DNA of 48,464 nt from an uncultured Candidatus Saccharibacteria bacterium (GCA_964623505.1 CAZUSP010000002.1:1-48464), one strand, 5' to 3'. Shown: positions 43,372-48,464, counted from the first letter of the stretch. Program-made: numbers and translations. The notes: generated by a model from the letters alone, not told the origin.

Positions 43372-43490
43372 GCTCGGGTGGCGGCGTCCTACTTTCGCGG
43401 AAAACCACTATCATCGGCCTAGAAGTATTTCACGACTGAGGTCGGAATGGGATCAGGTGGGACAACTTCAGCATAGCCGCCACCCGAAAG
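43372..43490 (-). rRNA. rrf: 5S rRNA
   Basis: The reverse complement reads ...GGTGGCGGCTATGC...CCCACCTGATCCCATTCCGACCTCAGTCGTGAAA...GTAGGACGCCGCCACC. Helix I pairs 43374-43385 with 43476-43487. Confidence 0.9.
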
Positions 43491-43758
43491 CATTTTTAGC
43501 AACTATTAATTGCCAGCCAATTTAAAAGCAATAAAGAAGGTTTAAGATTATTAGTATCTCTCGGCTCAATACCTTACGGTACTTACACCTGAGACCTATC
43601 AACCCGGTCGTCTTCCGGGAATCTGTGAATCCTAATCTTGAAGTGAGCTTCGCACTTTAGATGCTTTCAGTGCTTATCTCATCCCGACATAGCTACCCAG
43701 CAATGCTCCTGGCGGAACAACTGGTACACCAGAGGTCAGTTCATTCTGGTCCTCTCGT

Positions 43759-44143
43759 CAAGTCTCTCCTGTATTTCTGCAGGCTTAGACTATATCTTCA
43801 TCCGTCCAAACGAACGGAGCCGGCGTGTGATGAAAGTTAATGCTTAAAAGCTTCCCTTCCATCTCTTGCTTATTCAGCAAGAAGTCGTTACGGGGACAAG
43901 CCATGGCTCTAAAATAGCGCTTATATCAAAAGGAAACCAGCGATATAAGCCAGATCAACGGCTTTAACTTTTGCTTGTCTTCCCACGGTATTGCCTTAGT
44001 TGATATTCGGTCCTCAAGTAAATTGCCCCACCAGACATTGGACCAGCAAGTCCTATGGGTTCGATGGTCGAATATTTAATGAAGGTTTCACCGTTTTTAG
44101 CCAGATTGTCATCGCAGATTACTCTGCGAAGTAGCAATTTCTT
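43759..44143 (-). mobile_element. group I intron 1, inserted in the sarcin-ricin loop (about E. coli 2656)
   Basis: Flanking exons join to CUUAGU|ACGAGAGGACC. The 5' exon ends in U and the intron ends in G. The core includes GGCAAUACCGUGGGAAG and GAAGAUAUAGUCU. 385 nt. Confidence 0.8.
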
Positions 44144-44205
44144 ACTAAGAATGACTCTTCTCAAGATTCAGCGCCTGCGGTAGATAGGGACCAACCTGTC
44201 TCACG

Positions 44206-44903
44206 CTAATTTTTGCTTGCATCTGTTACCAGATGGATCGGACTATACCATCATCCTTTCTAAAAAAGGAGACCGACGTATTATGAAAGTTTTCTCTTCC
44301 ATCTTCATGCAAAACATGAAAGTCTCTACGGGGTCGATATATGACTAATGCGCCTCTTTGAATAATTCAAGTCTTTGAAAGTATTAGCTGGCTGTACAAG
44401 CCGAGCGAAATTATTTTCGCTTTTGATTTTCTTTCTTTGATCAAGAATTTTCAGTATAAGGTCTGCCCGCTTTTTCATCACTAAAAATGGCTTAACTGAC
44501 TTTAGAAACTTCTCAATTTCTTCATCTTTGCTAACAACATGCTCCCGGATGCCATTTTTTCTGATTCTTAAGCAACCATCCTATGTCTTTGCAAACCCCT
44601 TTCGAATTCTTTTTGATGTTTTTGCGACTGAAATAACACTACGTACGGCACAACCTGAAAGTTGTAACGATTGGTTGTGTTTGGCTTTAATCGCACATAG
44701 ATACCTCCGTCGCCATCCAAGAATCCCGCCAGGTATGTTTGACGCAGACTTTGTGATTTAGACATATACGACTTCCCTCGGTATTACCCTAACTTATGAC
44801 AAGTTGAAAGACAATAGCTAGGAATTCACCGATATGAGTCGGTTTTTCAATTCACTTTACAGTGGAAAGCCGCCGTGTGAATTCGATGTTGTGGTTCGTT
44901 TTA
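44206..44903 (-). mobile_element. group I intron 2 at about E. coli 2593 (the I-CreI-type site)
   Basis: Exons join to GGGUUCAAACCGU|CGUGAGACAGGUUGG. U(-1) and terminal G are present. The core includes GGUAAUACCGAGGGAAG and GGUAUAGUCC. 698 nt. Confidence 0.85.
44326..44765 (-). pseudogene. I-CreI-like single-motif LAGLIDADG homing endonuclease gene, disrupted
   Basis: MSKSQSLRQTYLAGFLDGDGGIYVRLKPNTTNRYNFQVVPYVVLFQSQKHQKEF, then frame changes and a TAG. It continues CLRIRKNGIREHVVSKDEEIEKFLKSVKPFLVMKKRADLILKILDQRKKIKSENNF, collinear with the I-CreI architecture. Confidence 0.75.
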
Positions 44904-44996
44904 ACGGTTTGAACCCAGCTCACGTAAGATTTTAATCGGCGAACAGCCGAACCCTTGGAACCTTCTCCAGCTCCAGGATATCTTGAGCCGACATCG

Positions 44997-45490
44997 CTGT
45001 CGTATTTTACTCTTCTTACGAAGAGGTTCGGACTATACCTTCATCCATTCTTCTCTGAGAGAAAAATGGAGTCGGCATCTGATAGTGTGTTTTGACACTA
45101 TCTCACTCTACTTAGTATTCTCTCGCGAAAACACTAAGATCGAGATTAGTCTCTACGGGATTTAACCAATTTATAACGAAAGACTTTAGCTGATTGTACT
45201 TCCAATCAACGTAGTCTCGCTGATTGATGCTGCGATTTATCTCTAAAAAGTCATCCGCACGCCCTTTTAGCCGCCTTGAATAGCCATCTCCTGGAATTGT
45301 TCCAACTAGGATAGATCGCTGAAATTGGTCTAAACTTCCCACGGTATTGCCCATAAATTAAAAGACTCAGGTAGCGAATTCTACCATATTTTAATCATGG
45401 GTTTCACCGTTATGAGCCGATTTTCTCTGCCCTCGTCCCAAGACAGAGCTATCCCGATTGCTCGGGAAAACACCCCGATATGTGTTTTTG
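44997..45490 (-). mobile_element. group I intron 3 at about E. coli 2500
   Basis: Exons join to GUUCGACACCU|CGAUGUCGGCUC. U(-1) and terminal G are present. The core includes GGCAAUACCGUGGGAAG and GGUAUAGUCC. 494 nt. Confidence 0.85.
45165..45354 (-). pseudogene. N-terminal remnant of a LAGLIDADG endonuclease ORF
   Basis: MGNTVGSLDQFQRSILVGTIPGDGYSRRLKGRADDFLEINRSINQRDYVDWKYNQL, with LAGLIDADG-like LVGTIPGDG. The ORF then runs into intron core sequence, so only about a third of a full-length enzyme remains. Confidence 0.6.
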
Positions 45491-45728
45491 AGGTGTCGAA
45501 CAGGGCCGTAGATATGGACTCGTGGGCCCTACTAACCTGTTATCCCCGGGGTAACTTTTATCTGATGATCTTCCGTAGTTCTACGAATTACGGTCGGTTC
45601 ACTAAGCTCCTCTTTCGAGACTGCGCGGCATAGCCGCCTTGCAGTAAAGCCAGCTTATAGCTTTGCCCTATCGCTTCGATTTCCATCCGAAGCTAGCTGA
45701 CCTTTAGACGCCTCCGTTACTATTTAGG

Positions 45729-45971
45729 CAATCGTGTTGGCTCGATCTTATAATTGAACATTGGAATCATAAATGGGGAAATTATTTGCCTGAATCTTTC
45801 AGCGCTTGAGCCGATAATATAAATTCTCCATTTTTTCTTCGCATACTTATTTTGAGCATGTAATCTTGCTTCGACACCACACCTCACTTTAAGTGTTTTC
45901 CGCAAACTTTTCAGATCATTCTCGGTAAAATCCAAACTATGAATTTGTGTTTCGATTAATCTTGAATACAT
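45729..45971 (-). pseudogene. C-terminal remnant of a LAGLIDADG endonuclease ORF in the intron 3' (P9-side) extension
   Basis: ...DFTENDLKSLRKTLKVRCGVEARLHAQNKYAKKKWRIYIIGSSAERFRQIISPFMIPMFNYKI resembles the second half of LAGLIDADG enzymes. No LAGLIDADG motif or N-terminal half is present. Confidence 0.5.
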
Positions 45972-46265
45972 GCTTCGAGCACGCTCTATGTCGCCATAGA
46001 GTTCAGACTATATCTTCTCTGCCTAAGCAGAGTCCGGCGTGTAGTCGTTGAGGGGTCATGTCTGTTATAAAACAGACAGCGGACTTCCCTGCTGATTGTC
46101 TGCACTGACAGATTTTCACTGGCGGATATTCATTATATCCACCGAGTACTGTCAGATACTCAGAGTTCCCAGCATACAGCCGGAATGCCCCATTTCTTGA
46201 TTATAACTTGGCTTCATCTGCTGTCTAGCAACCAAACAGCATATTACTGATACAATCAAAATTTA
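45729..46265 (-). mobile_element. group I intron 4 at about E. coli 2262 (just 3' of the P-loop helix)
   Basis: Exons join to GGGGCGCUCGCCU|CCUAAAUAGUAACGGAGGCG, restoring the CGCCUCC/GGAGGCG helix. U(-1) and terminal G are present. The core includes CAGCAGGGAAG, GACUACACGCCGG and GAAGAUAUAGUCUGAAC. 537 nt. Confidence 0.8.
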
Positions 46266-48464
46266 AGGCGAGCGCCCCACTCAAACTAACCCCCAGACAC
46301 GGTCCCGGCCGTTTTTGAGGCGGCTCGGTTAGAACTAGGACCACAACAGGATGGTGTTTCATTGACGACTCCACCCAACCCGAAAGTCAGGCTTCAAAGT
46401 CTCCCATCTACGCTACGCAGCTGCAACCCTAGGCCAATATCTGGTTATAGTAAAGCTCCCGGGGTCTTTCCGTCTAGCCGCAGGTAACCGGCATCTTCAC
46501 CGGTACTGCATTTTCACCGGGCATCTCGTTGAGACAGTTCTCCGGTCGTTACGCCTTTCATGCGGGCCTGAACTTACCAGGCAAGGGATTACGCTACTTT
46601 AACACGGTTAGAGTTACCGCGGACGTTTACCGGGGCTTCGCTCAGTCAGCCTCTCTCCGAAGAAAGAGACCGCCAAGGTTAACCTTACGGCACTGGTCAG
46701 GCGTCAGCCCCTATACATCCTCTTACGAGTTAGCAGGGACCTGTGTTTTTGATAAACAGTCGCCAGAGAGTCATTTGCTGTGCCCCAAGCAAGCTTGGGG
46801 AGTCCTTATTGCAAACTTACGGACACTGATTTGCCGAGTTCCTTAACGAGATTTTACCCGTTCACCTTAGCACTTTTATGCCTACCCACCTGTGTCGGTT
46901 TTCGGTACGGAGCCCGTTGAAAACGAAACTAAAACTTTTCCGGGAAGAGTGCTCACTAGAATTTTCTTTCCCAAGGGAAAGAATTTCGGTTGATCTTGGG
47001 TTGCCCCTTAATCCGCCGACCCAAATCCAATAATGGGATCCGACTACTACTCTTCGTCATTTTAGATCTATTCAACCGGCGGGCTGGAATATTAACCAGC
47101 TGTCCATCAGCTACCCCTTTCGGGTTGACCTTAGGACCGCCTAACCCTTGGATGATTGTCATTGCCAAGGAAACCTTAGGTTTTCGGTGCTCAGGGCTCT
47201 CACCTGAGTTGCGGTTACTCGTGCCAACATTCTCACTTCTCCCGGCTCCACCACCGCTCTCGCGACGACTTCAATGCCAGAAGAACGCTTCTCTACCGAC
47301 CAACTCAAAAGAGTTGGCCCCATGTCTTCGGTATTAGGCTTAGGCCCGTAAATTTTCGGCGCGGAACTTCTTAGCTGGTAAGCTATTACGCACTTTTTAA
47401 AGGATTGCTGCTTCTAAGCAAACCTTCCAGGTATCTTCGAAACTCCACTTCCTTACCACACTTAGCCTAATTTAGGGACCTTAGACGATGGTCTGGGTTG
47501 TTTCCCTTTTGCCCATGGACCTTAGCGCCCACAGACTGACTGCCCGACTCGAACGCACCAGGAATTCGGAGTTTGGTTAAACAGGGCGGGACGAACCCAA
47601 CCAAGTCTATCCAGTGCTCTACCTCCCAGGCGAAGCATCGGACGCTAGCCCAAAAACTATTTCGAGAAGAACCAGCTATTCCCAGGCGCGATTGACTTTT
47701 CACCGCTTGCCACAGCTCATCCCAAAGTTTTGCCACACTTACGGGTTCGGACCTCCACGCGTGCTTCCACGCGCTTCATCCTGGCCATGGCAGGATCGCC
47801 TGGCTTCGGGTCTTGCTCATACTGCTAACGGGTATTTAGCCCTCGCTTTCACTACGCTTCTCGGGGAGACCCCGATTAAACTCGCAGTATAAACAAACTC
47901 GTTGGCTCGTTCTGCAAAAAGCACCCCGTCACGGCCCGAAGGCCGCTCCGAGTCATTGTAAGCATAATGGTTTCAGGTCTATTTCAACGCCCTCACCGGG
48001 CTGCTTTTCACCTTTCCCTCACGGTACTAGTTCGCTATCGGTGATATTGAGTATTTAGTCTTTCCCGGTAGTCCGGGATGATTCCCGCTGGGCTTTCCGT
48101 CCCAACGGTACTCAGGAAAGAACCAGGAAGTCGATCCTTTTCGTCTACGGGGCTATCACCCTCTTTGGCCCACTCTTTCCAGGGCGGTTCGACTAAAGAT
48201 CTTTTTCCTTTAATGATTCTCCCTACAACCTTTTCGACTGAGCAAGGCTCTGTCGAAAGTTTAGACAACACCCCTTTTCGCTCGCCGCTACTAAGGGGAT
48301 CTCTGACGATTTTTCTTCCTCCGCTTACTGAGATGTTTCACTTCAGCGGGTTCGCCGTCTCATTAAAGAGACTGTTTCGGGTTTAGCCGAAACGGGTACT
48401 CCCATTCGGAAATCTCCGGATCAAAGGTTGCTACACACCTCCCCGAAGCTTATCGCAGTTACGC

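Follow-up and report, generated by a model that had tools for sequence, protein, structure and literature searches.

The window analysed here, that is the whole 48,464-nucleotide stretch of contig CAZUSP010000002.1 from an uncultured Candidatus Saccharibacteria bacterium, ends within a 23S rRNA gene on its minus strand, and the 3' part of this gene is interrupted by four insertions (Table 1). The evidence supports the identification of the insertions as group I introns at positions L2262, L2500, L2593 and L2656 in Escherichia coli numbering, since they match the Rfam group I model, combine a U•G pair in the P1 helix at the 5' splice site with a terminal G, have covarying ribozyme cores, contain remnants of LAGLIDADG endonuclease genes and are absent from alleles in related organisms. 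All features described below are on the minus strand and all coordinates are those of the window.

Anatomy of the interrupted 23S rRNA gene

Deletion of the four insertions in silico leaves a 23S sequence of 2814 nt that aligns colinearly with E. coli 23S rRNA (L001, a copy of 2903 nt), in agreement with the original prediction, which held that their removal restores four universally conserved junctions. The junctions fall after positions 2261, 2499, 2592 and 2655 of this E. coli copy. The sarcin-ricin motif AGUACGAGAGGACC begins at 2653 in the same copy and at A2654 in standard E. coli numbering; the copy therefore runs one below the standard here and the sites are L2262, L2500, L2593 and L2656, exactly as had been estimated by eye. 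Other elements of that prediction were likewise borne out: the insertion lengths of 537, 494, 698 and 385 nt are correct to the base, as are the exon pieces of 238, 93 and 62 nt between them, and each of the eight junction strings that it quoted occurs once, on the minus strand at the expected place. Together the insertions amount to 2114 nt, or 43% of the 4928-nt locus, in keeping with the predicted 2.1 kb and more than 40%. The ligated junctions would read CGCUCGCCU|CCUAAAUAG (L2262), GACACCU|CGAUGUC (L2500), AAACCGU|CGUGAGA (L2593) and CUUAGU|ACGAGAGG (L2656). As had been claimed, U is the last base of each 5' exon and G the last base of each insertion. The boundaries at L2500 and L2656 are ambiguous by 1 nt on sequence alone, the first intron base being identical to the first base of the 3' exon, and were fixed by means of this U/G rule. 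The introns have a G+C content of 39-44%, as against 51% in the exons.

The Rfam large subunit (LSU) rRNA model for bacteria matches the gene with 1664.6 bits, starting at model position 60. When the downstream exon pieces are searched alone, each is matched by this model at the expected model positions, and the proposed LSU search thus recognised the pieces individually as bacterial LSU rRNA. The match obtained with the whole window (46156-48464) ends 109 nt inside the first intron, yet claims the end of the model, and the three downstream exon blocks (43537-45728) come up only in a separate search of that stretch. Automatic annotation would consequently call this 23S gene truncated. The insertions cluster around the peptidyl-transferase centre, as had been noted. 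Position 2656, described there as part of a GTPase-associated loop, belongs to the sarcin-ricin loop, and the name GTPase-associated centre is usually not applied to it.

Table 1. Coordinates of the 23S rRNA gene, its exons and introns, the endonuclease gene remnants and the 5S rRNA gene in the window
Feature	Position	Strand	Description
23S rRNA gene	43537..48464	-	five exons and four introns; 5' end (~59 nt) lost at contig end; Rfam LSU_rRNA_bacteria
Exon 1	46266..48464	-	E. coli about 60-2262
Intron L2262	45729..46265	-	537 nt; ribozyme core in 5' part, endonuclease-gene stump in 3' tail
LAGLIDADG_2 remnant, L2262	45744..45944	-	C-terminal third only; tblastn
Exon 2	45491..45728	-	238 nt; E. 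coli 2263-2500
Intron L2500	44997..45490	-	494 nt; predicted IA-type core with P7.1/P7.2
Truncated LAGLIDADG_2 gene, L2500	45175..45354	-	first ~60 codons; open reading frame 45112-45354, 80 aa
Exon 3	44904..44996	-	93 nt; E. coli 2501-2593
Intron L2593	44206..44903	-	698 nt; predicted IA-type core with P7.1/P7.2
I-CreI-family LAGLIDADG_1 pseudogene, L2593	44329..44774	-	frameshifted: 44774-44598 in one frame, 44577-44329 in another
Exon 4	44144..44205	-	62 nt; E. coli 2594-2656
Intron L2656	43759..44143	-	385 nt; predicted IA-type core, without open reading frame; in sarcin-ricin loop
LAGLIDADG_1 remnant, L2656	43930..43980	-	17 codons (..VDLAYIAGFL..), in P6
Exon 5	43537..43758	-	222 nt; E. 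coli 2657 to 3' end
5S rRNA gene	43376..43484	-	Rfam 5S_rRNA 73.6 bits; 52 nt downstream of 23S gene

Group I structure of the four insertions

The Rfam group I model (RF00028) has matches inside all four insertions on the rRNA strand, with E-values that refer to a search of 5 kb. The L2262 insertion gives 79.9 bits (E = 9e-20; match at 45984-46244), followed by L2500 with 31.4 bits (E = 3e-5), L2656 with 30.5 bits (E = 6e-5) and L2593 with 25.7 bits (E = 1.6e-3). Only L2262 reaches the gathering score of 50 bits, which is a curated detection cut-off and not a biological criterion; the other three matches are significant but below it, and the group I search proposed with the original prediction would therefore have given a partly positive result. 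The likeness to group I introns is not due to chance, since all four insertions carry such a match on the rRNA strand and three of them have covarying homologues. Both sequence signatures that had been noted, UAUAGUC(C/U) and GGGAAG, are present in each insertion; the second, however, does not belong to P3/P4 as suggested but forms the start of P6, immediately 3' of the 3' strand of P4.

Homologues of the L2500, L2593 and L2656 introns covary across helices P1 to P9 and the P3/P7 pseudoknot. For this analysis the helices were defined on the window sequence and the alignments were anchored in segments on conserved motifs; the homologues of L2500 and L2593 were drawn from the same loci as those of L2656, which came from the scan described below. 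At L2500 (13 homologues) 93.7% of cells are paired, whereas slid controls give 37-44%, and compensatory changes are seen in 24 of the 51 pairs. The corresponding values are 90.2% against 29-41% at L2593 (13 homologues; 27/53 pairs compensatory) and 92.9% against 38-47% at L2656 (18 homologues without an open reading frame (ORF); 22/46 pairs compensatory), and none of 500 column shuffles of the L2656 alignment reaches the observed covariation values. The conserved group I core, comprising the P3-P8 and P4-P6 domains, the P3/P7 pseudoknot and the P7 bulge beside a G-C pair, is thus seen by covariation in these three introns, and by the RF00028 match together with a minimum free energy (MFE) fold in L2262. 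In the window copy every core helix is paired, and the joining segments J6/7 and J8/7 as well as the guanosine-binding pair of P7 are as in the homologues. The terminal base of the intron is a G in most of the aligned homologues too.

The L2500, L2593 and L2656 introns also contain two adjacent predicted hairpins, P7.1 and P7.2, between P7 and the 3' strand of P3 (z-scores of -5.7, -3.3 and -5.5 respectively), and their modelled architecture is that of subgroup IA. Their cores share near-identical strings, AAUACCG(U/A)GGGAAG, CCCGUA(G/A)(A/C)GACU and UAUAGUC (45335-45342, 44772-44779, 43979-43986, J6/7, J8/7), and a compensatory difference affects the base that precedes the P7 bulge together with its partner, which are A..U in L2656 and G..C in L2500 and L2593. 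No P7.1/P7.2 hairpins are found in L2262. Among 13 insertions of at least 100 nt found in three related 23S genes (L020, L113 and L042), only one attains the RF00028 gathering score. The Rfam group I model systematically under-calls introns of this IA type from the candidate phyla radiation (CPR), which have P7.1/P7.2 and carry an ORF in P6, and published intron fractions for CPR bacteria that are based on Rfam are for this reason probably lower bounds.

Guide sequences for the predicted P1 helices were located in all four introns. In the L2262 intron, the MFE fold pairs exon GCCU with GGGGC (46191-46187), with the U•G pair at the splice site, and recovers P3 to P9. At L2500, GGGUGU (45475-45470) pairs with ACACCU of the 5' exon, with U•G in all 13 homologues, and the adjoining AUAUCG (45481-45476) pairs with CGAUGU of the 3' exon to give a P10 of 6 bp. 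Exon base 45496 covaries with this guide: the window and L003 have exon A and guide U, while ten other species have exon G and guide C. The L2500 intron has thus followed a substitution in the rRNA itself. Both guides of the L2593 intron are contained in CACG|GCGG at 44877-44870, P1 being CCGU/GCGG, which is conserved in the homologues, and P10 (4 bp) being formed by CACG with CGUG of the 3' exon. At L2656, UGCUA (44136-44132) pairs with exon UAGU and the first intron base A, with U•G in 15 of 18 homologues; in the RF00028 alignment the conserved U that the model has at the splice site coincides with the final exon base, and the G with which it pairs lies in the intron sequence UUGCUA.

Several observations weigh against the view that all four insertions are group I introns that splice. 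As noted above, three of the four fall below the gathering score of 50 bits. Both choices made in the alignments, that is the definition of helices on the window sequence and the anchoring on motifs, give the proposed structure some advantage, but the values of the slid controls are much lower. The 3' splice site of L2262 lies 268 nt past the end of the conserved UAUAGUCU motif (J8/7-P7), and this distance leaves the choice of that splice site unexplained. A P10 helix was sought by eye at L2262 and L2656 and no convincing one was seen at either site. An intact endonuclease that could serve as a maturase is absent from all four introns. Finally, splicing of all four introns in this cell is deduced from sequence.

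Intron distribution in related genomes and decay of the endonuclease genes

No 16S rRNA gene is present within the window. Downstream of the 23S gene lie the genes for 5S rRNA, MreC, MreD, PBP2, lysyl-tRNA synthetase and seryl-tRNA synthetase, in an order that is syntenic with that in relatives L002-L005; the contigs of these syntenic relatives were found through the lysyl-tRNA synthetase gene of the window. Homologues of this synthetase carry the names Patescibacteria or Nealsonbacteria, and by these named homologues the contig is assigned to the Patescibacteria (CPR).

Two close relatives differ from the window in their intron content. L004, with a 23S rRNA 92.8% identical, is uninterrupted at 2262, 2593 and 2656, where it reads exactly the predicted ligated junctions, and has introns at L2500 and L1931; its L2500 intron is homologous to that of the window and contains an intact LAGLIDADG_2 gene of 210 aa. 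L042 (93.6% identical) is uninterrupted at 2500 and has introns at L2593, L2656 and L1931. The L2593 intron of L042 is without an ORF and approximately 85% identical to the core of the window intron, whereas its L2656 intron encodes an intact protein of 161 aa. A third contig, L002, starts inside a homologous L2656 intron. Intron-less alleles equal to the predicted ligated exons therefore exist for all four sites. The 1931 junction is intact in the window (46601); the L2262 core of the window (45984-46120) resembles the L1931 introns of L042 (6650-7208) and L004 (4126-4690), with 77-87% identity over 38-73 nt, a sequence likeness that hints at relatedness between introns at different sites.

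For a wider view of L2656, one genome per species (GTDB) was scanned with the pattern ATAGTC-N15-45-GACGAGAGGACC, in which the J8/7-P7 motif is followed by a short P9, the last G of the intron and the sarcin-ricin loop sequence of the 3' exon. Of the 120 matches listed, 84 are in 23S context, and an L2656 intron is thus present in at least 84 further 23S genes, most of them in metagenome-assembled genomes (MAGs) labelled as CPR/Patescibacteria lineages. The remaining 36 listed matches are without 23S context and were treated as chance matches, which is in line with an estimate of approximately 500 such matches for 18 fixed bases in 596 Gb. The lengths of the listed L2656 homologues are bimodal, with ORF-less forms of approximately 285-500 nt and forms of approximately 740-890 nt that contain a LAGLIDADG gene of 155-185 aa in P6. 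At the other sites, among the matches listed, 15 of 52 loci are interrupted and 37 uninterrupted at 2500, 31 of 62 are interrupted and 31 uninterrupted at 2593, and 8 of 25 are interrupted and 17 uninterrupted at 2262; these proportions come from a biased sample, the loci having been selected for an L2656 intron. The L020 and L113 genes, which represent two other species, have insertions at the four sites of the window and at a fifth, and L062 has eleven. Among the matches listed, 55 genes cover the region, and at least 4 of these have four or more insertions downstream of 2200; the figure is a minimum, as adjacent introns were in some cases merged.

Some L2656 introns are found in MAGs labelled Gammaproteobacteria, Pseudomonadales or Elusimicrobiota (L030, L031, L065, L076, L093 and L104). 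The labels of the Gammaproteobacteria and Pseudomonadales MAGs look doubtful, as their 23S rRNA is only approximately 69-75% identical to that of E. coli. Many MAGs labelled "uncultured Candidatus Saccharibacteria" hold the L2656 intron as well and this label may be generic; Saccharibacteria were nearly intron-free in a 2024 survey (PMC11270868).

None of the four introns in the window contains an intact LAGLIDADG ORF (about 150-240 aa), but endonuclease remnants occupy the positions where homologous introns hold intact genes that match LAGLIDADG_1 or LAGLIDADG_2. The gene in L2593 gives two high-scoring segment pairs in different frames when intact homologues of 148-159 aa are used in tblastn, and its ORFs are only 65 and 51 aa long; when the two parts are joined, their translation matches I-CreI (E = 6e-13 over residues 11-141) as well as I-MsoI, the classical enzymes of site L2593. 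The L2500 fragment scores 27.3 bits with Pfam LAGLIDADG_2 (cut-off 25) over profile positions 1-57 of 168, and intact homologues of 187-210 aa align with the window over residues 1-60 only. In this gene an in-frame internal deletion joins residues 1-60 to the last codons, which overlap J6/7-P7. The L2262 remnant corresponds by tblastn to residues 162-227 of the intact 239-aa L2262 endonuclease of L020, and that at L2656 to residues 4-20 of the L113 L2656 endonuclease (65% identity, E = 5.6e-4). By these sequence comparisons the four genes are pseudogenes or remnants rather than functional members of their families. The endonuclease gene of L2262 is placed downstream of P9, in the 3' tail, and not in P6; the ORF that covers its remnant (45720-45971) continues across the 3' splice site and ends after two codons of the exon (..TRL|PK*).

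Alternative explanations, known systems and proposed history of the introns

We regard it as extremely unlikely that the insertions are intervening sequences (IVSs) or expansion segments that are kept in the mature 23S rRNA, or that are cut out by RNase III without ligation to leave a fragmented rRNA. It is true that CPR 23S genes also carry insertions that are not introns, that RNase III-type IVSs probably exist in the CPR (PMC11270868) and that three of the four insertions score below the Rfam threshold. Like the introns, such IVSs are extra sequence in the 23S gene that is absent from functional rRNA. They replace the tips of helices, however, and the flanking pieces stay unligated, whereas the elements in the window have group I cores and interrupt universally conserved functional sequence: the peptidyl-transferase ring at 2500, position 2593 beside A2602, and the sarcin-ricin loop. 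All four combine such a core with the P1 U•G pair and a terminal G, close relatives lack them precisely, and their sites differ from the classical IVS sites 23IS2 and 23IS4 named in PMC11270868. Membership of the RNase III-type IVSs was accordingly rejected on the basis of the conserved domain V/VI sites and the group I cores. The suspicion that the gene was misassembled, with foreign intron sequences from the community joined into it, or that sequencing errors account for the frameshift and deletions of the endonuclease genes, seems to us exceedingly improbable as well. In its favour, metagenomic assembly of rRNA regions is difficult, the end of the contig falls within the 23S gene and the L2593 frameshift is close to runs of A. 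Against this, exons and introns are colinear over 4.9 kb, homologous introns occupy the same sites in the syntenic relatives L002, L004 and L042, and the large deletions in three of the endonuclease genes are beyond base-calling error; these three observations led us to dismiss an artefact.

There is a very small chance that this is a dead or redundant rRNA copy, or that ribozyme activity has been lost in at least one intron, and that an intron-free operon elsewhere supplies the ribosomes. The source genome is a MAG in which a second operon could lie outside the window, and the four decayed endonuclease genes show relaxed selection on part of each element. The exons are intact, however, and score as a normal bacterial LSU; in the ribozymes the core helices are all paired and J6/7, J8/7 and the guanosine-binding pair of P7 are unchanged with respect to homologues. 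Furthermore, CPR genomes usually contain one 16S and one 23S copy (PMC11270868), and the 5S gene and syntenic neighbours are as in relatives. Intact exons, paired cores and syntenic surroundings speak against a pseudogene and we have rejected this explanation.

Multiple clustered 23S group I introns in the CPR are already known and this locus is one more instance. Tsurumaki et al. (2024, J Bacteriol, PMC11270868) surveyed 348 CPR 23S genes and reported insertions of 100 bp or more in 82% of them; 968 insertions were found in 284 genes, with a maximum of 16 per gene and a mean total insertion length of 1327 +/- 1112 bp. The group I introns in that survey cluster around the peptidyl-transferase centre with a 3' bias, and LAGLIDADG_1 genes are reported at 1917, 1931, 1952, 2593, 2604 and 2657, together with ORF-less forms and "degenerate ORFs with large deletions" at the same sites. 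According to the same survey's account of Brown et al. (2015), such insertions are removed from transcripts. The window shares with these systems (Brown et al. 2015, as there described; PMC11270868) the lineage, the gene, the clustering and the LAGLIDADG_1/LAGLIDADG_2 families. Sites 2593 and 2657 are common to both, 2657 being L2656 here within the 1-nt ambiguity, as are the ORF-containing, ORF-less and degenerate forms. There is no difference in kind, and the only feature particular to the window is that four endonuclease genes are decayed at once. Neither 2262 nor 2500 could be confirmed among survey sites 23IS9-11. The suggestion that the intron load is exceptional was not upheld: four introns totalling 2114 nt are above the average but well within the published range (PMC11270868), and L020 and L113 carry more.

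More distant systems also resemble the locus in part. The Cr.LSU intron of the Chlamydomonas reinhardtii chloroplast, which encodes I-CreI and is a subgroup IA3 intron located at L2593, and the Monomastix intron encoding I-MsoI have the L2593 site and a homologous single-motif LAGLIDADG protein in common with the window; their hosts are plastids, whereas the host of the window intron is bacterial and its endonuclease gene is frameshifted. In cyanobacteria, the 23S gene of Synechococcus sp. C9 contains introns at L1917, L1931 and L2593 (Haugen et al. 2007, PMC1995217). Several introns of the LAGLIDADG type and an L2593 intron with a short P2 and P7.1/P7.2 are thus found in both, but Synechococcus sp. 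C9 has three introns with full-length endonuclease genes where the window has four with decayed genes, and L2262, L2500 and L2656 are outside its set. Other bacterial 23S group I introns occur in Coxiella burnetii (L1917 and L1951) and in Thermotoga and Simkania (L1931), with LAGLIDADG endonucleases encoded by L1951 and L1931 examples (PMC1995217). Their sites differ from those of the window, although relatives L004 and L042 have L1931 introns.

Taking the evidence together, we consider it very likely that this 23S gene is split by four group I introns that splice, and that these arrived by homing and have since suffered decay of their endonuclease genes. Each intron would fold into a group I ribozyme whose internal guide forms P1 with the last bases of the 5' exon, the U•G pair being placed where cleavage occurs. 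By analogy with established group I chemistry, an external guanosine bound in P7 would attack the 5' splice site; the exon released in this way would in turn attack behind the terminal G of the intron, so that two transesterifications guided by P1 and P10 would join the exons into a continuous 23S domain V/VI. The helices surrounding the peptidyl-transferase ring and sarcin-ricin loop would be restored by splicing, and it is a reasonable inference, already made in the original prediction, that all four introns must splice for ribosome function. The L2500, L2593 and L2656 introns have a single IA-type design in common, with a slot for the endonuclease gene in P6, from which L2262 differs. LAGLIDADG endonucleases encoded by the introns would have driven homing by cutting 23S alleles that lacked an intron, and the introns would now be immobile passengers at a late stage of a cycle of gain, degeneration and loss, persisting only because they still splice.

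There is a slim chance that the introns have been co-opted and are more than inert passengers. This is thinkable because intact, covarying cores have been kept long after decay of the endonuclease genes, in a very small genome that probably has no other 23S gene; the introns might, for example, act as a brake or checkpoint on the maturation of the large subunit around the peptidyl-transferase centre and sarcin-ricin loop. For the 23S introns of Coxiella, such a slowing of growth has been suggested. A smaller possibility still is that L2500, L2593 and L2656 are paralogues that spread between CPR rRNA sites, as might be supposed from their near-identical core segments, the alternative being three separate imports.

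As a discovery the locus has little weight, clustered group I introns of the LAGLIDADG type in the 3' part of the 23S gene being a published hallmark of CPR/Patescibacteria. Its value lies partly in annotation, in that standard covariance models truncate the gene at the first intron and recognise one of the four introns, with the consequence that annotation of such genomes yields too few rRNA calls and too few introns. In addition, the locus clearly illustrates the late stage of the homing cycle, in which the ribozymes are kept and the endonuclease genes are gone, while relatives with 23S rRNA approximately 93% identical hold different sets of introns, including intact endonuclease genes at two of the sites occupied in the window.

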